A stretch of 63,666 nt of DNA, filler included, from Collodictyon triciliatum (Eukaryota), in NCBI GenBank assembly GCA_043381765.1. It is 8 parts of 8 records of this genome, joined end to end, with 100 filler letters (N's around TTAATTAATTAA, not from the genome) between each part and the next. Parts side by side here need not be neighbours in the genome. Positions count along the whole stretch, not along the records: positions 41,764 to 52,104 come from JBHJMP010002715.1; 7 more parts are not named here. The stretch is one strand, 5' to 3'. Shown piece by piece: positions 7,601 to 57,231 of this stretch. How positions within the stretch are numbered: the first letter of the stretch is position 1; each line of letters begins with the position of its first letter. Below the pieces are notes generated by a model. It saw nothing but the letters and a program-made list of their open reading frames with translations, was not told the DNA's origin and did no database searches. Made by a program: the position numbers and the translations under genes.

Positions 7601-8031
7601 AGCTCGCTGATATATCCAGAAACGAAGCGACTGTGTGGTTTATCAACTGGCCCTCTCTTTCTTTCTTTTTTTACTATTCTTCTGATTGGTTTTTTTTTTC
7701 ATACCAACAGCTGTCAATATCCCTACAGAGCCGCTTCGAGCCTTATCTGCTGGACTCGGACGACACTCTGTCGACTAACTGCTGGCTGCTGCTCTATGTA
7801 TCTTTCTTTGCAGCGCTTGTACAGGAGCTTGTGCCAGGGAACAACTGGATTTCGTTTGCAGTGGTCGGAGTGAATGCCGCCTTTATACTGTCGTTTGTGG
7901 TAACTTTTGCCAAGGAGATATTAGAATCCACAGTCGGGCTGTTCTTGATGGTCATGAAAAAGCTCTACTTCATCATTCCAGCAGTATGGCAAACGAGAGA
8001 GAAGGCTCCTTCAACCATGGAGATGATGTAG
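1643..8031 (+). CDS. Spliced LRR + cysteine-rich + multi-pass transmembrane receptor-like protein
   Basis: Hydrophobic N-terminal segment (WILFLSLITLSVIA), LRRNT-like 'W...ICEWYGIVC', many LxxLxLxxNxxxGxIPxF repeats, Cys-rich CKCLPGYFG...CQTGYTGKDCAACDDGY, then several TM exons ending in a WWVVV...FEPY..D..STN pattern. GT-AG introns join the frames; stop TAG at 8029-8031. Start codon uncertain (1643 or 1720). Confidence 0.88.
5860..6480. repeat. Compound T-rich microsatellite (TTTATTTTTG, CTTTTT, TTTGTTTATCAT, TTTTGATTTTCC) inside an intron
   Basis: Visible tandem arrays between donor AGG|GTCTCG (~5801) and acceptor CATAG (~6534). Confidence 0.9.
7318..7434. repeat. (CATCGTCTTTT)n 11-bp minisatellite, intronic
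   Basis: About 10 tandem units visible. Confidence 0.9.
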
Positions 8032-10352: not shown

Positions 10353-10452
10353 NNNNNNNNNNNNNNNNNNNNNNNNNNNNNNNNNNNNNNNNNNNNTTAA
10401 TTAATTAANNNNNNNNNNNNNNNNNNNNNNNNNNNNNNNNNNNNNNNNNNNN
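10353..10452. other. Artificial scaffold linker N-TTAATTAATTAA-N (also at ~20775, 31226, 41664, 52105, 57023, 62530)
   Basis: Identical ~100-nt pad with six-frame stop TTAATTAATTAA, recurring about every 10.4 kb. Confidence 0.97.
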
Positions 10453-20514: not shown

Positions 20515-21113
20515 CCTTCTCGAGTGCGTGTGTTGTGTTCTCAGCTGTCTTTTTAGATGAATCCGTTTAAATAACAGAGGCGAGTAGTTTTCATCTTTCC
20601 TTTTTCTTTTTTCTTTTTTTCTTTTTTCTTTTTTCTTTTTTTCTTTTTTCTTTTTTCTTTTTTCTTTTTTCTTTTTTCTTTTTTCTTTTTTCTTTTTTCT
20701 TTTTTCTTTTTTCATTTTTCATTTTTCATTTTCTCTTTTCTTCTTTTCTTCTTTTCTTCTGTTTTTTTCTTTTTNNNNNNNNNNNNNNNNNNNNNNNNNN
20801 NNNNNNNNNNNNNNNNNNTTAATTAATTAANNNNNNNNNNNNNNNNNNNNNNNNNNNNNNNNNNNNNNNNNNNNTTTTCTCTTTTTCTCTTTTTCTCTTT
20901 TTCTCTTTTTCTCTTTTTCTCTTTTTCTCTTTTTCTCTTTTTCTCTTTTTCTCTTTTTCTCTTTTTCTCTTTTTCTCTTATTCATATTTCCGTGATTATG
21001 ATGGCATGTTCTGTCACCGCTCGTATTTCTACATAGTCAGCATCACCAAATCCATTCAAGTAATTTCCTATGTCCCCAGTGATTTCTGATTCCATCTCTC
21101 TTTTGGATTGTAG

Positions 21114-31105: not shown

Positions 31106-31325
31106 GTACCACCACCGAGAAAAAGAATAGAATATAATAGAATATAATAGAATATAATAGAATATAATAGAATATAATAGAATATAATAGAATATAATAG
31201 AATATAATAGAATATAATAGAATATNNNNNNNNNNNNNNNNNNNNNNNNNNNNNNNNNNNNNNNNNNNNTTAATTAATTAANNNNNNNNNNNNNNNNNNN
31301 NNNNNNNNNNNNNNNNNNNNNNNNN

Positions 31326-31389
<64 letters not shown>

Positions 31390-31510
31390 AAAAAAAAAAA
31401 CGAAAAAAAAAAAACGAAACTAAACAAATCAATGGTTTGTCAGTAAGTTGAGCAGATGTAGCAAAAACATATTTGATTGATCATTGAACATATTTATATT
31501 CACACGAAAG

Positions 31511-33395
31511 TGGCAGTACGCTCCGATGCCAAGAATACATGAACTCTGTCTCCGTTATAAGCCTTTAAGTAATCAACCATACTTAGGTGGCGGGCCGGTG
31601 GAGCTAATCGGAAACTACTACGTGGGCCGGTTCCTCGGGAAAGGGGCCTTTGGTGAGGTCCGAATAGCACATCACCGAATCAGCGGAGAAGAGTTTGCCG
31701 TGAAGTTTATCAGGAAGGATGGAATCAAGGATTTTCAGAATGCAGAACGAATGTCAGCTGAAATAATGGCTTTGACAGTTCTGAAGCATCCCAATGTCTT
31801 GCACATGTACGAAGTTTTTGACACGATGGACTCAACTTGTTATGTGATGGAGTATGTCCCTGGAGGAGATCTTTTGAATTATATCGTGCAGTATGGAACT
31901 CTGTCAGAGTATGACATGTTCAAGTATTTTCAGCAAATCATTTCTGCTGTCGAATACTGCCACGGTCAAAATATCATTCACCGAGATCTGAAGCTGGAAA
32001 ACATCCTCCTTGACAAAGATCAGAAGAACATCAAGATTGCTGATTTTGGGCTTTGTGGTGTGCTATTACCTGACCCCACTGACGACCAGGGCGGTACAAG
32101 AGCATATTCAGCCCCAGAGCTTTTCAAGGGGAAGACAGGCATAACACCTGCGCTCGACATATGGTCCATCGGTGTTATTGTATATGCCTTGCTTTTTGGA
32201 AAGCTCCCCTTCAACGCCGATAATGGCCCTGTTCTGGTAGATAATATTATCGCAGGCAAGTATACAATACCAGCAGGGTCTATCTCTCCCTCATTACAGG
32301 ACTTGATATCCAAATTACTCACAGTCAACATTAAGAAAAGAGCTTCGATTATCGATATCCATTGTCATTCTTGGATGCAGCAAATGAGGCGCCGTGTTCT
32401 GATGGAAAAGGCAGATTCAAACAAACACCCCGGCGAGTACGATGAGTTTCATTTGGATCACACAGCGCATGAAATGGGAGATGGAACATCATCCCCACCA
32501 CCAGAGGGGTCCAGTAATGCCGGGGTTTCTGGACAAGCGGGTGAGAGAAGAGGGACCATCACCAGCGGACGTGGAGCCACAAGGAGTGATACCCGTGGGA
32601 CCTTGCCTGAAATTGCCACTAAGGGAGGCCGTCGCGTCAGCAAGCCATCCACAGGAGCCATAGCAGTTTCCCCACGACCGCCTGCAATGCCATCACCAAA
32701 TACTGGCTCGTCTGCATTCCGAAAGAAACCAGGTACCTTGGAATCCAGCACGACGATTTACGATTTGCCATTTTGCAGAGCCCCTTTCCCCTCTTTCCTC
32801 TCTGTTTATTTACTAGCCCAAGCATACCATATTATTTCACCCGTGAATTTTGGAAGACAAACTTTATCTACAACATATTTTTTTTTATCACCTGTTCACG
32901 AAGGGGTAAACCCGCTATTTTATGAGCACACCATCGAAGAACTAAAAACAAGACAATAGAGAAGGAAAAGTCACACCAAGCCTAATAATCACTAAACACG
33001 ATTCAGTGGCCTCATCCGATTATGCTGGACCTGCGTACTCTATCAAGCCTAGGATACCCTCGGAGAGTGCACCAGCACCACCCTCGGCCTCGGCTGAGAA
33101 ATACCCAAAAACAGCGCGTAAACGTGCGCCAGATGTACCTCCTCTATCCTTCCCTCATTCTTCAGCCTCAGGCCCGAATGGATCGCATCTCCCCGAAATC
33201 GCAAATGCATCCAGCTCCAATCTCCCTTCTGTTGGACACAACAGCACCGGCGGCTCGGCTCCTCCCTCGGGCCGTCTGGGTAGAATCTCTGATGACAGCG
33301 ATAGTACACCCGGCAGGAAGGCGACCGACTGGAAGGCTGGGTACAAGGGATATATTCAAAACTATCGCAGATCGAACAATACCACATCATCGTAG
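31511..33395 (+). CDS. CAMK-group (AMPK/MARK-like) Ser/Thr kinase, possibly 5'-partial
   Basis: LGKGAFGEV, FAVK, HRDLKLENILL, DFG, APE and DIWSIG motifs. Intron 32733-33006 joins a disordered tail. Confidence 0.92.
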
Positions 33396-41549: not shown

Positions 41550-41763
41550 GTTAACCCCAGCGGTAGCTTCTTCTTCTTCTTCTTCTTCTTCTTCTTCTTC
41601 TTCTTCTTCTTCTTCTTCTTCTTCTTCTTCTTCTTCTTCTTCTTCTTCTTCTTCTTCTTCTTCNNNNNNNNNNNNNNNNNNNNNNNNNNNNNNNNNNNNN
41701 NNNNNNNTTAATTAATTAANNNNNNNNNNNNNNNNNNNNNNNNNNNNNNNNNNNNNNNNNNNN

Positions 41764-43206
41764 GAATATTACGGAAGCTGTTAAAAAGGCAGAGTTACGA
41801 AAGTTAAAAAAAAGATATCTTCAAGAAACTCGAAATACCGGAACAATATAAAGAATGGACTACAACGCATTTGCATCGTATCATTCCCAGCGATATTGTA
41901 AATGGTATCAAATATATCGTCAAAGTCAATCCAAATAAGTGCATATCATGTCTGATTTACATGTATCGCATTTTTGGGTCATCGGAACCAAACTGTTTCA
42001 AACAATCTCTGTAAGAACTAACAATATACCATATCATATTACTCTAGATACTGCATGTTTGATAGTTCTATTAGGAATATCTGAAAAAAACATCACTAAT
42101 GAAGAATATATACCAGGATGCATAGAGACACTATGGGATGGTTTCTTTGAAATGAAGAAGAGGGTCTTTCGTCAAAGAGACTACAATTTTAAATACACGA
42201 TACAAGCAGACAGCTTGGCGGTGTCATCATTGTTTGGAAAGAAAGGGATTTCAAATTTCAAATTCCAAATATAATGAAAAAAAACCAAGAACATGTTTAT
42301 ATATATGAGCTTTCCGAAGAGCAGTTATCTTTTTAGCGACAAAAAATAGTTGGAGTGGACGCAGGCAAGTTTAATTTGGTTTAGATGGTGGATGAGACAG
42401 GTAAGAAATTATGTTACATGGCGCACCAAAGACGTGATAGCAAATCTCTTAAAAATCACAAACTATTCTTGTGCGAGAAATAAAGTAAAGTACAATGCTT
42501 CAGGGGTATGCATGACAACAGGTTTACAAAGTGCTGTTTCTTTTGGTCCCCTGACTTTTGAGGAGAATCAGCTGTTTGGGACATCGAGAGTATCTCTAAT
42601 CGTTTTAGACACAGAACTGAGTAAACATAATTCATGCATGGTCGATTATGAAAAAATTCGAAAATATGTATCTATGAAATCAAGATTCCAGATAGAATTA
42701 TCCAGATTTTATGAACAAGTAACTTTTCGAAAGATGAGATGGAGACAGTATGTAAATACAAAAAGAAGTGAAGAGTTGTTTATGGACCGAATGGAAAAGA
42801 CATTTGGCGAGGATGCTGTACTGGTCTATGGAGACTGGAGCAGAAATTGTCAGATGAAGCATTTTATGGCAACAATCGGAAGAGGATTACGAAAAATACT
42901 ATCCAAACGCGTTGAGATATTTAGTGTGAATGAATTTAGAACCTCCAAGGTGTGCTGTATCTGCGAAAAAGATCTGGAATATATGACACTGAAAGGAAAT
43001 ACAAAAAAATGTATAGATGTCTCATGTGTAAAGAATGCAATTGCTCAGAAAGCAAACAAACTGTATTCTTGACAAGGGACTTTATCAGCGCTAAAAATCT
43101 ACACAACAAAGTTCTTTCAATCCTTCAAAATATGCATACACCTTCCTCTAAAAAACAGGCTGTCGGGTCTCTACTGGCAGCCTTCATCACTACACGATCT
43201 TTGTGA
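41764..43206 (+). pseudogene. Decayed Fanzor (Fanzor1-like, TnpB-related RNA-guided RuvC nuclease), 5' truncated by scaffold edge
   Basis: Across frames: KLFQ..VRTNNIPYHITLDT, TIQADSLAVSSLF, RuvC-I KIVGVDAG (D 42358-60), FYEQVTFRKMRW, YGDWS, RuvC-II VNEFRTSKVCCIC (E 42932-34), second Cys pair CKEC, RuvC-III TRDFISAKN (D 43078-80). In-frame stops at 42334, 42382 and 42481; frameshifts near 41812, 41975, 42270 and 43005. Confidence 0.9.
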
Positions 43207-43267
43207 ACTAAGTGGTGAGACCTTGGAGACTAGCGCACCAGGTTTACCAATCTTTCGTTTGGTATAC
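43157..43267 (+). ncRNA. Candidate Fanzor omegaRNA scaffold
   Basis: Overlaps and follows the Fanzor 3' end. Stems at 43157-66/43174-83, 43185-91/43211-17 (inner 43193-97/43201-05) and 43245-50/43259-64. Loop 43167-73 is complementary to 43224-30. Confidence 0.55.
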
Positions 43268-43868
43268 TCCTTCCGATGTATTGTATAAAACTTGAGAAAA
43301 ACGCAAAGCAGTTATAATCACATATTCGTATACTGTGAATAGACGACAGAATACAACACCGTCTGATTTGCAACAACACGATACCGATGCAAGCCCAGCA
43401 ACAAGATTTAGATTCTGTTTTACTAATGAGTTTGCCCTGTTTACTTTCACAAACTGGTGGTGCTGCATAATATTTCAATTTCAAAATAAATTCCACATGT
43501 GGTTGTATTTCGATCACGTTCTCATCACCAGCTTCCATTGAACTATCACAAATCGCTTGCGGCTTTCTTTTCGACCAACGGCGGAGGGGTGGAAAAAAAA
43601 AAAAGAGAAGCATAAGGAAGGGGACGCTGTTTTAACATATTGCTTTTTTTTTTTTCCCCCCTTTGTGTGCGTTCTTTTTGAGTTGGACAAAATTTTAGAG
43701 GAATCCATCAGCAATTTAGTCGCCCTGCCCTTCTAATGCTGTTGCTTTGTCCTTTTTTATTTTTATTTTTTTTATTCTATATTTGTCATTTATCTTTTTT
43801 TCTTTCCCCTCTTTGATTTTCTATGTTGCGTCAAAATACTGAAAAGTATCAACACCAGTACACACAGG

Positions 43869-45978
43869 ATGGAAGTTTCTCATGCTGAAAAGTTTGACCG
43901 CGCTGCTGCTCAACTGCTTAGTTCTGATCTAAGTAAGGCTGCTTCTCCCTTATTCTTTTCGTCCATTGTCGAACACCTGCTATCAATTCTCTCTGACAGA
44001 ATGAACATCCCTCCGAATAAATCAATATAATCAACACAAGATCGTTTCCGACTTGAAAGATTAGCACACAAAGATGGCTTTCATGATTGAAACATAATGC
44101 ATTTATTGAAGAAATATTCCAATTGAGAGAAAACATTCCTACCTCATATTATGGTCGATGTCTAACAGAAATGAAAAGCCTCTCATAATTTTCAATTACC
44201 ATTTCATTTATCAAGTTGGAATAAAACGTGCACTAAACTCTTATAAATGCATGCAACCAGACATATCCTTCAAGTACAACACGATTGTGGACATTCGCGA
44301 CTGCATCGAATTAACCCAAGGAGCCGAGTATCCGCACTTTCTTAAAAGTCTGATTCCAGCGTTCACTACGTTTCTCAACAATGTTCCTCCAAATTTTTAC
44401 TCGGAAAGTATCGAGCACAAGAGCCGAAATGCAATACTTGAGATACTCAACAGACTTCCAAATACAGAGGTTTTCTTAAACATTTCGCATATGGTTTATC
44501 AATACATATTTTATCAGCTATTTTCTTATAAAATATATACCTATTTGAATTAAGCATGAGTATCCCACCCTCTTAATTTTTTTCCTGGAACATTTTAGGT
44601 GTTAAGACCTCACGTAATAGATATTTTAAGATGTTGTATGAGTGTGTTCGAAGGGGATAATGAGGAAAATGCTGTTGTTGGCCTCCGGATAATCATAGAA
44701 CTGCATAAAAACTATCGCGCACAATTAGAGAACGATGTCCAGTTTTTACTTGACCTTGTCATCAAAATATTCGAAGCAGTCCCGACAGCATTGAAAGAAG
44801 CTTTCAGCGAGAACCCAACCAATCGGCATGTCCACCAGGGAACACACTCCACTAACACGCCTTCACCACAACATTCAGCGCACATACTATCGAGCTCATC
44901 ATTGTCCCTTTCACTGCCTTCATCATCGGTTATGGGAAATTCCTCTGGAGTCTCACTGCAAATGGGAGTAAATCCACCAAGTGCCCCAAACCCCAACGCC
45001 AGTGCCCAAGATTTGGTTCTGGTAAAAAGGTAAGGCAATCCAATTTTAGTAGTTCTCTTATTCATTTTTATGACCTTCCCGAGATATCAAAACAAACACT
45101 TCCAATTTCCAAGAAGAAAAAAAATCCTTATCGCCGGATTTTTAATAATGTTATTCAAGGAATTCTTTTCATTCGTTACATTTTTAGTTTACATTCGTTC
45201 AAAGTGCTGATGGAGTGCCCTGTGATGGTGGTGATGATACTCCAATTTTATCAAAGGTCTGTTATGGAAAATATTCCAAGATTTATTCCTCTTGTCATGC
45301 AAATTCTGTCTCTAAAAGCCCCAGAGACGAGGATTATCCATCAAAGACAACAATATGTCGATTTCATCTCTGCCCAAGTTAAGGTGATTCGCTTTCATGA
45401 ATTAATGTGATGTTCTTTTCGACTAACGACAAACATTATAAAGCAGACATCGGCTATGATGTAATCTTCTTACCATAAACATAATTCTTTAGATTCTTTC
45501 CTTTTTGGCTTACATCGCTCGACAATATGGTCCCCAATTGCAGCAATACCAAACAAAAATACCAGAATTTGTTATTCAACTTCTTCGTGCTTGTTCTTTT
45601 GAAGCACCATCGATAAGAAAGGTATATTTCCATTTCATATATACATATGTATCACTTAAATGAGGTATATAGCGAAAGATATGTGAGCACTCTAATCGAT
45701 ATATTTGGATTCTCAGGATTTACTGGTTGCAACACGCCATATTCTTTCGTCGGAGTTTCGGAATTTTTTCATTCCCCATATAGATGCTTTGATTACTGAA
45801 GATATTTTGATTGGACCTCCAAGGGTCACTTTTGAGTCATTAAGGTTTCATTTTGACACAATAGCCTTCCTGAAACGTAACATGAATCAGTATTTGCCTA
45901 TTCCTATTTATATATTGATATATAGATTAAAATTCTCCTAAAACATGAAAATTGAATATATTCTATGATTTTTTTATT

Positions 45979-46057
<79 letters not shown>

Positions 46058-49000
46058 GAGCAGGTCCCTAGCTTATGGAACATTAGCTGATTTACTGAAT
46101 AATGCAAAGCATGATTTGTCCCTCGCTCAACTCTCCAAAGCTGTGCATCTTTTTTCGAAAAACTTACACGACAGAACTCTGCCACTGAACATCCAAACTC
46201 TTTCTGTCAAGCTTATCCTAAGTTTAGTGGAAGCGATTGTATCAAAGAATGAAGACCAGTCCGGTTTGTATAAGCACTATTATGGTTGAAGTGAATAAAT
46301 CAATCTCTATGACCTTTTACATCCTAAGCTGTTTTTTTTTTTTTTAAAAAAAAAATAAGGTTTACAAGTTACTATGATTTAAATATATTAAATTGCCAGA
46401 AACAACCTCCCATTACAAGAGTTTCAATACAATTTTTTTGACGAATATGTTTATTTACTCACATTTTTTATCATTTGTTTTTAGCAAGGACTCTTCTTAT
46501 TCGTATCCTTGATACACTCACAAATAAAGTGGCATCTATGAGGAATTATTTGGAAAAATTGGTCAAAAGCCCACCAGAGCCTCCTGTACAATCGAGTGAT
46601 GACCCGTCAGCGTCAAGTGTTGGTGTAAACCAAAGTGCCAATGTGGTTGGTGTTGAGAACATTCGCTACGGTGTTATATCCGAGCCTCCCACCGAAACCC
46701 TACGCGGTATTTCTTTTTGTTCATTTGTCTTCATTACTCATATCATATTTGTATTATTGTATGATTTGAGCTTTCCTTTTTCACAATAATTAATAAGAAA
46801 TAAGTCTATTTGAACCTTCGTTTACAAAGCTGAGAATTTACCTCTTATTTTAGACTACTGAATACATCGCAACTATATACAAAATAGAATGTCGGTCGCT
46901 ATTGAAGTCTCTAATTTGGGGATTGAAGTCTGTAACGATGGGGCTATTTAACGGGTTTTCAAATGTGAGTTTCACATTTAACCCTTTGATGAATTACTCA
47001 TGTATCACATTAGTGGAGTTTATATTTTTTTCATATTCGCAATTACACTTTTTTTATACTCATGCCATCTCAAAGCCCGCAAGTCTCTCTGGTAGCACAA
47101 AGCAACCCTTGTCAGCCGAGGAGAGCTCGATTTTATCTCGCCTTTTTGTGCATGGCTTGAAGTGTCTGAGCCTTTACACTTTGAATGATAAAACAACGCC
47201 TCCCAGTGAAGAGAAGGAGGTTGCTATTATTAATAATTATGAAATGGGAAAAAACGATGAATTCGATTTATGCTTTTTTTAAAAAATTTTTTTATTATGT
47301 TTGAGTTATAGCATGGTTTGATTTTACACTTTACCCATATTCTTTCTTATTGGGGCAAATATTTTCGAAATCAAATCTAGATTTTGGAACCTTTTTCTGG
47401 TATCTATACTATGATTGATGTTAGGACATTTCAAGACATAATGAATCAACATATCGGCTACCTATTTAATATCTTGCTCGAGAATCAAACGATGCTGCTC
47501 GTTCCCCAGCACATCGTAACAATACAAACCGTTTCCAAAAATTTCGTTGAAATCTTGCTGAACTATTTGGTCGATAATTTGAAGTATATTTCTTTTTCTA
47601 TTTCCTTTTTCTTTTACACGAATTTTTAAAAAGAAGTCTTGGAAAAATTGAATTGATATATTTATATTTAACGGTATGTCACTTTACTTGTGCAATAGGC
47701 TTCTTGATACTTCAGATAAGATTCAGTCAGGGGTAGTTTTACGTCTGTTTAAATTGGTATTCAGCTCAGTAGCGCTTTGTTCTGAGAATGAGTCAATACT
47801 CCAACAGCACTTGAATACAATCATTATCGGGAGTTTGAATAATAGCGCAGAAGTTAAGGTTGATACACCTCAGTTTGCTTTATATATTGGCGAATTTAGT
47901 CGAAGATTTCTCCTTCTTCTGAAGGAATTCTAGAGGAAGAATGTGCCACTGAAACAGTTAAACTTACCACAGGACCCGACCAATTATTTCCAACTTTTAA
48001 GGACTTTTTTCAGAAGCACAGGGAGCAATCCACTAGATAATCTGCTCAAAGAATTCATCCCTTTGTTACCAAGTATTTTTTTTTCATATACAACCTTTCA
48101 CGAGCCAACTCTTATCACATATTGAACTTTTTTTTCCTTCATTCGATTCAAAGATCTCATATTGAACTATACATGTACTCATTTAATATGATGCTATTTT
48201 TAGCTTTCTTGGAGAGCCTCAATCGACTCCATATGACTGTTCAACAACCCGCACTGAAGCACTTGATTGTTGAGCTGTGTCTTACTGTCCCTGTGCGATT
48301 GAGCAATTTGCTTCCATACCTCCAGTACATAATGAAACCGCTCGTTGCAGCTCTAGAGACAGAAAATGATTTGGTAACTTCACAATCGCTACCGGATAAA
48401 AAAAAAAAAGAGAGACAATATTCCTTTTTTTTTTTTCCATTCAATATACACGTTATTGGTATTACTCAGTAAATATATAGAAGAATAAAATATGTTTTCA
48501 CTCTATCTTACATACGCAAATTAGGCTCTCCAAGGCCTCCGTACCTTGGAGCTTTTCATAGATAATATCGAGGCGAAATATTTGGAACCATACATCCAGC
48601 CAGTCCAAGCTGAGCTAATGACTGCACTATGGAAACACCTTCGTCCAGAACATCATCACCTGTACCGTCAAGTTTTTTCAATTCTTGGAAAGTGGGGAGG
48701 ATATAACAGACAATTTTTGAAGGAATTCCTCGTAATGGTACGAATTAAGCACGAAAACAAAGCCAATATCATTGGATGATTTACCATATATTTACTTGTT
48801 TATGTGCTTTACTAATTCGCTTTTGGATGTAGTTTAATTTGTTTGTATTACACTTTAGACTAATTTCAATAATGGAAGGGTTGCTGATACCACACTTTCT
48901 TATTTCTATCTCCCATAGCCCTATAAGTCCACTGCGGAAAATTACATGAATTTCCAAATGACATTCATCCAGCCCAATTCCACGGTTACGATGGCTGTCG

Positions 49001-51961
49001 ATAGACTTGCTGAAACAGCACAGGAAGTACTTTTAAAGGACGGTGTTGATATATATTTCAAGGTATGGTTTAATTCTTCTTCTACCAAACCATTTCGAAC
49101 AAGACATCGCCTAGCCTTTTGCAGAAAAAATCAGTGGAAAACTAGTGTCGCATTTTTTTCGTATTGATAAAATGAAAAAGATGAATTGAAAACATCGTAC
49201 CTCAATGTCAGAGACAAGCTGTCACGTTTATTATATCGGCAATATCTTCAGCAGTTAATTTTTCTGGGGACCCGACTGTAATAGGGTAGATTTCATATTG
49301 CTTAAAACTCAGTTAACTACTATACTAGTTCTCGTAGGTACATAAGTGATGTCCTAAAAAAAATTCCACAATACTACGTAGCTTGCACTCACCCGAGCTT
49401 ATGGATACCAGCGACAGGAAATTCAACCCAGCTATGCATATTATCACTAGTCCTACAGAACAGCAAGATATATATAAACCAAAAAAGCTGAGTCCAAATC
49501 AAAGGGCATCTTTGGTCAGACTCATCTCATCACTTATCCAGTCGTCAGAAACAGAGCTTCAGGTAATACATAGAGGAAATATTAAAAATACAATATTATT
49601 AGGATTAATATTCATCTAGACTATTTAACTCAGACTCACAAACTCTGCCTCCTTTTTTTCTTCTCTCTAATACAGAATGAGGTCGTGCCCTTCCTAGAAA
49701 ACCTGACCCGTCACTTTGTTTTAATCGCTGTTTCTCGAGAAAATGAAAAATATCCAAGGCAGTATAAGGTACTTTTTTCCCTCCTTTCTTATAGCTGATA
49801 TAGCAGAAAATAGCATACAGTTGTCATCACCTAATAGTTTCTCTCTTGGAACCTGCGTTAATGTAAATGTGATATGAACAATATTTCAGGTTGAGACGGA
49901 AAGTTCTATCATTCTGGATGCAATCATGGAAACCGTTGCATTAAATTATCGGGAACCCAACAAAGCATCCGTAAAATTGGTGTCAATAATTGTAGAGACT
50001 TGCACTACGCTTCTGGGGAATATCGTGAGAATGATTTTCTTCAATATATTGATATTCTGGTTGTGCATACCATGTATGCTTATCAGTATCCGCATCATAT
50101 CATTTCTATCGTTTTATTACTCTTTTAAGTATTTTCATGTTAGGAACGAGCGTCAGAGCTTGCTCTGTTTGATGAATTGGCAGAAAGGGCATCTTTTTAC
50201 TGCTATAAAACTGACTTGGGGTCCAAAGGCTGTGGATGCATTATTATTGGTCAGCTTGCGGCGTTCTTATCTACCGCGTGGGTCACACGGCACCATTTAG
50301 ACTTGGTTAAAGCAATTCTCATGGTTATGAAGGTTAGTCATTATTCTTGAAAACCATACAATAACACAATACCATATACATACATACATACATACATACA
50401 TACATACATACATACATACATACATACATACATACATACATACATACATACATACATACATACATACATACATACATACATACATTTTTCTTGTTTTTTT
50501 AAAAAAAACCCCATTCACTTTGATCATTCATAATGTTATCTTTTCCTTCATTATTTGGATCTATTTGTTTATACCGTGAGGTTAATTTTAAATTTTGTTT
50601 CTGAGTTCCTTTTCTTTTTAACATACGGCATATAGAATCTTCCTCAGCACTTCCATCATCTGTTATACAGTGACACGGCACCCCAGATTGCATTCCCATC
50701 CATAGAAGAGGGCTTTAACGCCATCATGGTCATTATAAAAAAATGTAACTATCCTGGAATAATAAAGGTTTGTGTCTTGTAATCCCGTCATTCCTTCAGC
50801 TTTTTTCCACTTTTTTTTAATATATATATACATATATTCACCCTTAAATCACATAGACGGAAGACCCAGGCTTCAGTCAATTCCAGTCATTCATTCAGAG
50901 TATATCTCCAGATATGGCTTCCTCTAATGCGTATGTTCGTCATACAATACAAACAGCCCTACGCACTCTCTCAGAAAGTATAAATTGCGAGGTACTTGCC
51001 TTTTTGGATGAAAACCATATTAATCTTACCGAATAAAGCTTTTCTTTTTCAATCTTGAATTTTCTTCATCATAGAAACTAAATAAATAAACAAACAGATT
51101 TCAGATTTGATCCTCATTTGCTGGTCCGTCTCCATTGATTATATCCTGAACAGGAATATATCAACTTTGAATCAAGCAACGCAAATCGGATTCATTGATG
51201 CTGTGACATTTTGTTTGAATTTGAGGCCCCAAATCATCACATTTACACCTGCATTGACTAAATTCCTTCAAGAGGCTCTTAAGTTCGTCGATAATGATGA
51301 GCCTTACACCAAACCAATCACCCAAAAGACGAAAAAGCTAAACGTGACCCTGAAAATCGTGAATATTTATGGAATTTACTCTGTCTTTTTTTTTATTTTC
51401 CCAAGTAGCATGTCATTTGGTACTTTATGATATATGTAAATCATATACCGATATGTATTCAACACAAAATTATTTTTCTATCTCATTTTTTCTTTCGTTC
51501 TTTTTCCAAAAAAAAAAAAAAAAGGTCTCCCTTGATTTACTATCAGCTGCGATGACAACAACAGACTTTCAGAACCTCCAATATGCCGATTTGAGAAATA
51601 AAGTAACAGGTGCTTTTTTCAAGGCCCTTACCGTCAGATCAAGAGAAATTGTAGATGTTGCAAAATCTGGTCTTACTCGTATCGTCCATGTTAAACTTCC
51701 AAAAGTAAATGAAGTTTCTCCACTTTTTATGGAATGTTTTATATTGCATTTTTTGATTATTTTGCTTCACTTAAATTCGTACCAGAGTTGGATTCAACTT
51801 ATTGAAAATATACAATTATCTCATGAAGGACCTGCTGCAGACAAGCCTACGTCCAATATTATTGAATCTTGCAGATCACAGAAAGCTTACTGTTCATCTT
51901 TTGCAAGGGTTGGCTCATTTGCTCGAGCTTCTTCAAAATTGTTTCAATGTAGCTTTAGGAG
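43869..51961 (+). CDS. TRRAP: TRRAP/Tra1 (PIKK pseudokinase scaffold), N-terminal part
   Basis: About 24 GT-AG exons: ILEILNRLP, DNEENAVVGLRIIIELHKNYR, SFKVLMECP, RKDLLVATRHIL, VELCLTVPVRLSNLLPYLQYIMKPLVAAL, QGLRTLELFIDN and LLQTSLRPILLNL. Truncated. Confidence 0.96.
48129..48153 (-). mobile_element. 25-nt micro-retroposon insert with 15-bp TSD (1 mismatch), in a TRRAP intron
   Basis: Reverse complement CTTTGAATCGAATGAAGGAAAAAAA, flanked by ATCACATATTGAACT (48114-48128) and ATCTCATATTGAACT (48154-48168). Confidence 0.85.
50376..50484. repeat. (TACA)n microsatellite, intronic
   Basis: Visible. Confidence 0.95.
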
Positions 51962-52901
51962 GTAAGTTAATTTGGTGCATTTGGATAGCCTAATTATTTA
52001 GCTTCTTTCTTGTCTTTCTTGTCTTTCTTGTCTTTCTTGTCTTTCTTGTCTTTCTTGTCTTTCTTGTCTTTCTTGTCTTTCTTGTCTTTCTTGTCTTTCT
52101 TGTCNNNNNNNNNNNNNNNNNNNNNNNNNNNNNNNNNNNNNNNNNNNNTTAATTAATTAANNNNNNNNNNNNNNNNNNNNNNNNNNNNNNNNNNNNNNNN
52201 NNNNCAAACAAACAAACAAACAAACAAACAAACAAACAAACAAACAAACAAACAAACAAACAAACAAACAAACAAACAAACAAACAAACAAACAAACAAC
52301 CTCCTTATCTATTTCGAGTGGCACTGTACATGTCTTTTTTTTTTTGGGTGCGCGTCAAACACGAAATAAAATGAGACCCAAGAAAAAAAAACACTGAAAT
52401 AGATACATACACTTTCACTGGCCAGACCCTGACTTTAAAATTCGGTACAGATGATTTTTACTTGTATGAACATAGCTCAAACCCGTGTGAAGCTATCTAA
52501 AATCTTAACTAACGCCGGCAAAAGTTCTGTACTGAATAAAAGTAAGAATGGAGTAGAGTGAAAGAGACCCTTCGATGGTGATATTAGCCATTATCGGTGC
52601 AACTTCACAAGCTATTTTAATCACACAAATCAAAGTGGCTCCAAAGTAAATAAAATACATTAATAAGAAAATATAATCGTTATGCCTGTGATTATCAATA
52701 ATTATATTAAAAACAAAGTGGAAAGCAAGACCAGGCATTAGCATTTTACGTTCCATAATTGAATAAAACGTGTAACACAATAATACGAATATGTAAAGGA
52801 AAGCTAATTTCTGTCGTGGCGACAAATCGAGCGAATAAAATACACCCGGTCTATTGTCTCAAATGCATTATCCAATACAACGAATAAAATAAACAATACG
52901 T

Positions 52902-56701: not shown

Positions 56702-57231
56702 GTAAGTATATTTTAATTCATTATGAAGCCGCATGTCAAATATTTTATAGCGATTGCCTGTGCTGTTGTTCTCTTTTTAAAAAAAATTCTAAAAAACTAC
56801 TCTACAATCATTCTAAATGAAATAATTTTGCATCAAAATCATCTTGCATGTCCTCTTTCCTCTTTCTTCTCTCCTCTTTCCTCTTTCCTCTTTCCTCTTT
56901 CCTCTTTCCTCTTTCTTCTCTCCTCTTTCCTCTTTCCTCTTTCCTCTTTCCTCTTTCCTCTTTCCTCTTTCCTCTTTCCTCTTTCCTCTTTCCTCTTTCC
57001 TCTTTCCTCTTTCCTCTTTCCTNNNNNNNNNNNNNNNNNNNNNNNNNNNNNNNNNNNNNNNNNNNNTTAATTAATTAANNNNNNNNNNNNNNNNNNNNNN
57101 NNNNNNNNNNNNNNNNNNNNNNCTTTCCTCTTTCCTCTTTCCTCTTTCCTCTTTCCTCTTTCCTCTTTCCTCTTTCCTCTTTCCTCTTTCCTCTTTCCTC
57201 TTTCCTCTTTCCTCTTTCCTCCATAATCTAG

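Follow-up and report, generated by a model that had tools for sequence, protein, structure and literature searches.

A decayed Fanzor1 copy with a candidate guide-RNA remnant, from a multicopy transposon family, upstream of TRRAP in Collodictyon triciliatum

Fanzors are eukaryotic RNA-guided nucleases of the same superfamily as prokaryotic TnpB, and those of the Fanzor1 type are carried by transposons in eukaryotes and giant viruses. In a stretch of 63,666 nucleotides (nt) from Collodictyon triciliatum (GenBank assembly GCA_043381765.1; the whole stretch that was analysed is called the window), a sequence-only reading had placed a broken Fanzor gene upstream of TRRAP. Here we describe this relic, its relatives and its surroundings. 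It is very probably a decayed Fanzor1 copy that keeps a candidate remnant of a 3′ guide RNA and belongs to a multicopy DNA-transposon family; TRRAP follows about 600 nt downstream, in the same orientation. Earlier publications cover Fanzor1 genes, how they decay, how Mariner/Tc1 elements have captured them and their occurrence in giant viruses (PMC3627910, PMC10432273, PMC10530073).

The locus

The relic lies at the start of the piece of the window taken from record JBHJMP010002715.1. Its features are given below in window positions; P0001 is an intact relative of 648 amino acids (aa) that serves as the reference, and R1 is a covariance model described further on.

41664..41763, no strand: artificial 100-nt spacer between two unlinked pieces; the sequence to its left is unrelated to the Fanzor1 relic
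41764..41807, plus strand: first bases of the piece; frame 2 resembles P0001 residues ~165–179 by eye, too short for a statistic
41808..43206, plus strand: Fanzor1 pseudogene body, ending at the stop codon TGA 43204–43206
43151..43269, plus strand: candidate remnant of a 3′ structured RNA module, the putative omega-RNA scaffold (R1, 13.2 bits)
43263..43290, no strand: approximate right edge of the repeat family, placed by a depth drop; one loose end diverges after ~43275
43869..52104, plus strand: 5′ part of the host gene TRRAP/Tra1, cut by the end of the piece (Tra1_central E = 1.4e-22, Tra1_ring E = 4.3e-13)

A Fanzor1 protein across broken frames

Stitched together, the frames of the relic give one colinear protein, as the sequence-only reading had proposed. 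A frameshift-aware alignment, with which tblastn agrees, pairs residues 180–646 of P0001 with 41808–43203 on the plus strand, passing through frames 3, 2, 1, 2 and 1 with 271 of 460 aligned residues identical. P0001 itself was the best of 13 proteins obtained from 477 candidates in a word-indexed search of longer proteins (E = 3.6e-62, 61% identity). The longest open frame of the relic (42350–43069, 240 aa) has 1749 matches at E ≤ 1e-3 among 1.84 billion representative proteins, 725 of them at E ≤ 1e-10 and 5 at E ≤ 1e-30.

Solved structures narrow the assignment. Compared with all chains in the PDB, the 240-aa frame matches the Fanzor1 proteins of Parasitella parasitica (E = 8.2e-11), Spizellomyces punctatus (E = 5.8e-10) and Guillardia theta (E = 0.047), and no others at E ≤ 10; their PDB entries are 8gkh for S. 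punctatus SpuFz1, 9cf0 for P. parasitica and 9cer for G. theta. P0001 matches the PDB Fanzor1 chains at E = 2e-28 to 4e-23, and a profile of 15 full-length relatives matches SpuFz1 along its whole length (profile positions 4–613, E = 5e-86), Parasitella Fanzor1 at E = 2e-86 and the third Fanzor1 structure at E = 4e-62. The earlier assignment to the Fanzor1 type agrees with these results: in the PDB, a set whose Fanzor2 chains were not checked, the relic, P0001 and the profile all matched Fanzor1 chains only.

The catalytic core can be followed through the frame changes, and all the signatures named in the sequence-only reading (the three RuvC acidic residues, GDWS and the two CxxC pairs) could be located by reading the sequence and by alignment with P0001, whose numbering is used here.

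42358..42360, plus strand: RuvC-I Asp, within GVDAG; the D364 column is invariant in 15 relatives
42830..42841, plus strand: GDWS; G521 and W523 are invariant in 15 relatives
42932..42934, plus strand: predicted alternative, Fanzor-type catalytic Glu, within NEFRTSK; E555 is invariant in 15 relatives
42953..43029, plus strand: four-cysteine (C4) zinc finger, with CxxC at 42953–42964 (frame 2) and CxxC at 43018–43029 (frame 1)
43075..43080, plus strand: RuvC-III Arg-Asp, within TRD; R603 and D604 are invariant in 15 relatives

The two CxxC pairs of the finger are separated by a frame change near 43001, and their cysteines (C562, C565, C587 and C590) are nearly invariant in the 15 relatives. Bao and Jurka (2013, PMC3627910) described the Fanzor/TnpB motif as D-X(125,275)-[TS]-[TS]-X-X-[C4 zinc finger]-X(5,50)-RD, every element of which can be read in the stitched frames with spacings inside the stated ranges, the TS pair lying at 42941–42946 (T558/S559). 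The same source gives Fanzor1 two extra conserved residues, a Gly and a Glu, and PMC10530073 describes a rearranged RuvC-II site in Fanzors, where the usual Glu has given way to Gly or Pro and its role has passed to a Glu further along. In the relic the Glu of NEFRTSK follows the Gly of GDWS by 34 residues; read in the light of these two sources, this Gly sits where most TnpBs have the RuvC-II glutamate, which matches the rearranged Fanzor site.

The relic thus resembles the Fanzor1 structures in that its RuvC and zinc-finger half aligns with them, the family profile aligns with them along their whole length, and the Asp, the GDWS-type Gly, the later Glu, the C4 finger and the RD are shared. 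It differs from them in being broken, in falling into a small clade of its own with P0001 and the fragment P0014, and in carrying an insertion of ~33 aa, which is common to these three.

A family of variants that end together

Logan contigs of four public runs were compared with 41764–45500. Two of the runs are metagenomes (X1 and X2), one is labelled ‘organism A’ (X6) and one is a freshwater metatranscriptome (X7); in all public runs that matched, the word shares are small (≤0.12). Over the whole interval, 113 contigs were found in X1, 46 in X2 and 225 in X6, most of them 85–95% alike, and up to 14 distinct contigs overlap at a single site within the relic. X6 has up to 14 variant contigs per site and a very high summed depth.

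This cover stops abruptly. Summed contig depth, which is not the same as copy number, falls from 28.3, 10.9 and 61.1 in the bin 43139–43263 (X1, X2 and X6, respectively) to 0.23, 0 and 1.16 in the bin 43264–43388. The relic is therefore a member of a repeat family whose right edge, in these public runs, lies about 60–80 nt past the stop codon. Within the window itself there is no second copy: a repeat search found only low-complexity sequence, and tblastn gave no further match. X7 yielded no RNA contigs of the relic.

Pieces of the TRRAP region occur nearly unchanged in X1 and X2 as well (1–3 differences in 151–241 nt), so both seem to contain the source organism or something very closely related to it. 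Three short NCBI-sourced proteins (P0041, P0043 and P0149, from contigs of 513–629 nt) are 72–77% identical to the relic frame and are frames of other decayed family copies, with breaks at other places. P0149 follows the correct frame through the DAGKF motif and then continues in a wrong frame within one open reading frame (ORF), an annotation artefact of a pseudogene. The variants in three runs and the three decayed fragments give indirect backing to the earlier suggestion of a current or past Fanzor system in this lineage.

A dead copy

The best alignment path through the relic crosses two in-frame stops and six frame changes.

42334..42336, plus strand: in-frame stop TAG, aligned to Ser356 of P0001
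42382..42384, plus strand: in-frame stop TAG, aligned to Tyr372 of P0001

The frame changes fall at about 41988, 42095 and 42120 (these two are separated by 25 nt), 42269, 42481 and 43001, and one further change, at an A-run near 41806, is implied by eye. As it reads, the copy can no longer make the nuclease, there being no open reading frame across it. The sequence-only reading, which had also called the copy dead, counted at least three stops and about four frameshifts; the order of magnitude holds, and the exact counts do not.

At position 42384 a letter other than that of the window accounts for 48.2 of 51.2 depth units in X1, 41.1 of 43.3 in X2 and 431.7 of 431.7 in X6, and yields a sense codon that agrees with the Tyr of P0001; the window’s own letter is retained in 3.0 of 51.2 and 2.2 of 43.3 in X1 and X2. 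At or close to several frame-change sites, other copies also differ from the window by a single base in length. Because nearly all other copies read sense at 42382–42384 and copies differ in length near the frame changes, the breaks are private to the window copy. Recoding of stop codons was considered and ruled out, as P0001 has Tyr opposite the TAG at 42382 and other copies have a sense codon at that site.

It is extremely improbable that the gene is intact in the organism and that the stops and frame changes are errors of sequencing or assembly. Several of the frame changes do fall at or near A-runs (~41806, 42275–42283 and 43003–43010), and the assembly is broken into pieces that end in microsatellites. 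However, both stops are base substitutions, independent contigs fit the adjacent TRRAP exons with 0 gaps, the window’s letter at 42384 persists in a small share of the X1 and X2 depth, and other fragments of the family are broken too, elsewhere.

Relatives on giant-virus contigs and their carrier

Relatives were sought with an alignment of the closest proteins in JGI metagenome contigs and in IMG/VR, two collections that overlap; they are encoded in 385 of 597 candidate stretches of the former and 262 of 328 of the latter. A viral scan that used P0001 alone gave 36 pattern matches, none of them confirmed. The best of the relatives found with the alignment are 47% identical to P0001, the viral group as a whole ~44–47%, and intact relatives are ~600–670 aa long. 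Many lie on contigs named GVMAG (giant-virus metagenome-assembled genomes) of up to 255–289 kb, near genes for a VLTF3-like protein, an mRNA capping enzyme, the small chain of ribonucleotide reductase and a topoisomerase. The earlier proposed resemblance to a Fanzor1 group carried by giant viruses is thereby supported.

In five of six loci examined (five of seven ORFs scanned), a divergent ORF of 300–346 aa with DDE_3 and helix-turn-helix (HTH) domains lies upstream of the Fanzor gene, and tblastn found a transposase match in 49 of 160 fetched loci, which are not all distinct. No recombinase ORF, such as the serine-recombinase TnpA that would point to a Fanzor2 or IS607-type element, was seen beside the scanned relatives. 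In all four loci examined for ends, a transposase–Fanzor unit of ~3.3 kb is flanked by inverted repeats of 32–38 nt that are 92–100% complementary. Each of these units has a DDE_3 and HTH transposase on the minus strand and a Fanzor1 of 605–634 aa on the plus strand:

L084, 4627–7949
L081, 4637–7952
L001, 6588–9912
L083, 4638–7919

The four elements lie on different giant-virus contigs, beside core viral genes, and have the same end sequence, a recurrence that suggests recent mobility among these viruses. Mariner/Tc1 elements that carry Fanzor1 have been described before, namely PGv-1 from Phaeocystis globosa virus and PUl-1 and PUl-4 from Pythium (Bao and Jurka 2013, PMC3627910), and the clade Fanzor1c is associated with Mariner/Tc1 (PMC10530073). 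The nearest intact relatives share with the PGv-1 type the arrangement of a transposase and Fanzor1 between inverted ends, unlike the window copy, which has neither a visible transposase nor an inverted end. The relatives’ inverted-end motif had no match in the window at ≤3 mismatches, and the interval 41764–44000 contains no informative repeats. The sole transposase-like match in the window, downstream of the gene (18 aa, 43324–43377 on the minus strand), scored E ≥ 0.18 in an ORF with no Pfam match and is taken as chance. The contig of P0001 measures 2610 nt, with no room for a transposase, so that the subfamily of P0001 and the relic may be non-autonomous. On this analysis the chances that a mariner-type transposase carried the window subfamily stand at about even.

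Trees were computed with FastTree (119 rows) and, for the 36 rows nearest to the relic by path length, with IQ-TREE in quick mode, the relic being read through with X at its breaks. In both, the relic groups with P0001 and P0014 at 99% support (Shimodaira–Hasegawa-like values in FastTree, Shimodaira–Hasegawa approximate likelihood-ratio test in IQ-TREE), adjoining the giant-virus group. As the trees are unrooted and most rows come without a known host, they give no direction of transfer between virus and host.

This proximity raises an alternative: the relic could come from a giant-virus segment integrated in the genome (an endogenous viral element) instead of a transposon family of the cell. 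Of the intact relatives, the nearest large group does lie on giant-virus contigs, the relic’s small clade adjoins the giant-virus group, the sequence to the left of 41764 is outside the piece, and virus-integrated Fanzor elements have been described (PMC3627910). Yet in three runs many divergent variants share an end point ~60 nt past the stop, as transposon copies do; a spliced cellular gene begins 600 nt downstream; identity to the viral group is only ~44–47% even for P0001; and no viral hallmark gene was seen in the piece that holds the relic. We consider viral integration improbable, and a cellular transposon copy the better account of the locus.

A covarying RNA at the 3′ end of the gene

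In seven viral or metagenomic relatives, the final ~230 nt of the ORF together with the right inverted repeat fold to a consensus of 50 pairs, and compensatory double changes are seen in 18 of these. The covariance model R1 was built from six of these seven (159 positions, 51 pairs) and matches 28 of 33 relatives’ loci, in each case where the Fanzor ORF has its 3′ end:

L084, 7793–7949
L081, 7796–7953
L001, 9755–9911
L083, 7760–7920
L003, 3346–3504
L004, 3194–3363
22 further loci

In an alignment of 30 matches fitted to R1, 85.7% of cells pair, compared with 44–55% when the partners are slid by 1–3 columns, and double changes occur in 36 of 51 pairs, compared with 13–17 when slid; fitting to R1 biases these pair counts toward the structure. 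No Rfam family matches the relatives’ 3′ RNA. On this modelling, the covarying 3′ RNA of the giant-virus Fanzor1 genes is a candidate omega-RNA.

One locus (L126) has two R1 matches on opposite strands ~7 kb apart, 7706–7838 on the plus and 833–985 on the minus strand; the second could come from a further Fanzor element or from a solo right end.

In the window, the best R1 match on either strand is that at 43151–43269 (E ~0.039 for the whole window, ~0.0014 in 2.2 kb), at the expected place and on the expected strand; its left end falls within the final codons of the relic and its right end at the edge of the repeat family. Of the hairpins, just the first two survive (~43157–43222), overlapping the last codons of the gene, and both also come out of an independent minimum-free-energy fold of 43000–43290 (z = −2.57; 1 of 200 shuffles did as well). 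Read off the R1 alignment, the first stem is unlike the viral consensus on both sides in ~5 of 9 pairs, and the part that matches the viral inverted repeat spans 32 nt against 70 model positions. We regard 43151–43269 as a candidate remnant of the family’s omega-RNA scaffold, its score owing something to coding homology.

The TRRAP neighbour

The TRRAP ATG lies at 43869, on the same strand as the relic, whose stop codon precedes it by 662 nt; with the two Tra1 domain matches, this upholds the earlier placement upstream of TRRAP. Contigs of X7 are spliced at two GT..AG introns (43933–44260 and 45028–45185), with 0–1 differences near the first joint, and TRRAP is accordingly expressed in that environment. 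In four records, TRRAP pieces agree with independent contigs without differences of length. From X1, X2 and X6, zero cover was obtained for 43264–44139.

A chimeric assembly of the repeat end, or contaminant DNA, could account for the way the repeat is joined to the region upstream of TRRAP. The piece begins inside a repeat, where assemblers often break or misjoin, and 43264–43900 is unbridged by contigs; the sequence 41764–52104 is nevertheless free of N, the G+C content is alike on the repeat side and the TRRAP side (0.35–0.38), and X1 and X2 contain both the near-identical TRRAP pieces and the family variants. We rate such a misjoin as very improbable.

About 200 nt upstream of the TRRAP ATG lies an inverted repeat (43585–43662; 19 nt, 95% complementary) made of a G-rich arm and an A-run followed by a T-run and a C-rich arm. 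The only Rfam matches in the window lie at this A-run/T-run hairpin (43570–43674); they are sub-threshold (MIR6024 reaches 26.3 bits, the cut-off being 72) and most likely chance.

Composition of the window

The pieces of the window (five of ~10.3 kb, then 4.8 kb, 5.4 kb and 1.0 kb) are joined by seven identical 100-nt spacers (N44-TTAATTAATTAA-N44):

10353–10452
20775–20874
31226–31325
41664–41763
52105–52204
57023–57122
62530–62629

Most pieces terminate in microsatellites. TRRAP is cut at 52104, and Tra1, FAT and kinase domains were not found in the piece that follows; since the gene does not continue beyond the next spacer, the pieces are non-contiguous, and the sequence to the left of 41764 is for that reason uninformative about the relic locus. 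The coordinates of the relic open at 41764, the first base after a spacer. The absent first 165–180 codons may simply fall outside the piece, and because the piece boundary cuts the 5′ side of the relic, a genomic 5′ truncation is not demonstrated. Two other pieces contain ordinary cellular genes, one with a protein kinase domain (31481–32956, plus strand, E = 2e-67) and one for a PP2C phosphatase (58969–59943, minus strand, E = 9e-30).

Discussion

Several points weigh against reading the locus as a Fanzor1 transposon copy with a guide-RNA remnant beside TRRAP. Curated libraries miss the relic fragments: none in Pfam, NCBIfam or PHROGs scores above threshold, the best Pfam match is OrfB_IS605 at E = 0.076, below the cut-off, and P0001 itself has no Pfam family. 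The R1 match in the window is weak, with ~55 nt at its start lying over homologous coding sequence; the bias of the R1-fitted pair counts belongs here too. The piece lacks the left part of the gene and the left end of the element, which is where the transposase lies in relatives, and because that end is absent, no transposase, inverted-repeat partner or target duplication is demonstrable for this copy. Finally, no contig reaches from the repeat across its right edge to the unique sequence beyond (43264–43900), so the linkage of relic and TRRAP comes from the assembly alone. Set against the colinear alignment, the conserved motifs and the common right edge of the variants, these points leave us highly confident in a decayed Fanzor1 copy at this place.

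An intact element of this kind would work as follows. Its gene would encode a TnpB-like nuclease of ~650 aa with a rearranged RuvC site (Asp, Gly, Glu at +34, Arg-Asp) and a C4 zinc finger. The 3′ end of the transcript, from the overlap with the last codons to the element’s right end, would fold into an omega-RNA, and the portion read through into the flanking DNA would direct the nuclease to DNA of matching sequence. Going by the literature on SpuFz1, GtFz1 and TnpB, the ancestral element would have made an RNA-guided double-strand DNA nuclease dependent on a target-adjacent motif. As in G. theta Fanzor1 (GtFz1, PMC10432273), the gene lies near the right end of the element and a structured RNA, here a candidate, overlaps its 3′ end. 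The prokaryotic TnpB systems of IS200/IS605 and IS607 belong to the same superfamily and follow the same scheme of a RuvC nuclease with a guide RNA (omega-RNA or right-element RNA, reRNA) that extends from the 3′ end of the gene to the transposon right end; the relic differs from them in its sub-threshold match to OrfB_IS605, in the change of the RuvC-II Glu to Gly with a later Glu, and in its eukaryotic context.

The relic has no function itself, and its value is as a marker of a Fanzor1 family that has been active in the source eukaryote or its close relatives. Its nearest intact kin sit in Tc1/mariner-like elements on giant-virus genomes, which fits the published idea that large viruses spread Fanzors. 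The model R1 is possibly more useful than the relic; it can serve to annotate candidate guide RNAs and the right ends of such elements. A bolder reading, to which we give rather low odds, is that the Fanzor1 family of the relic is young and remains active in a freshwater eukaryote lineage, sharing an origin and a conserved omega-RNA architecture with the mariner-borne Fanzor1 elements of giant viruses. Were this so, host and virus would exchange RNA-guided mobile elements, and the two would offer a natural host–virus pair for studying Fanzor in vivo.

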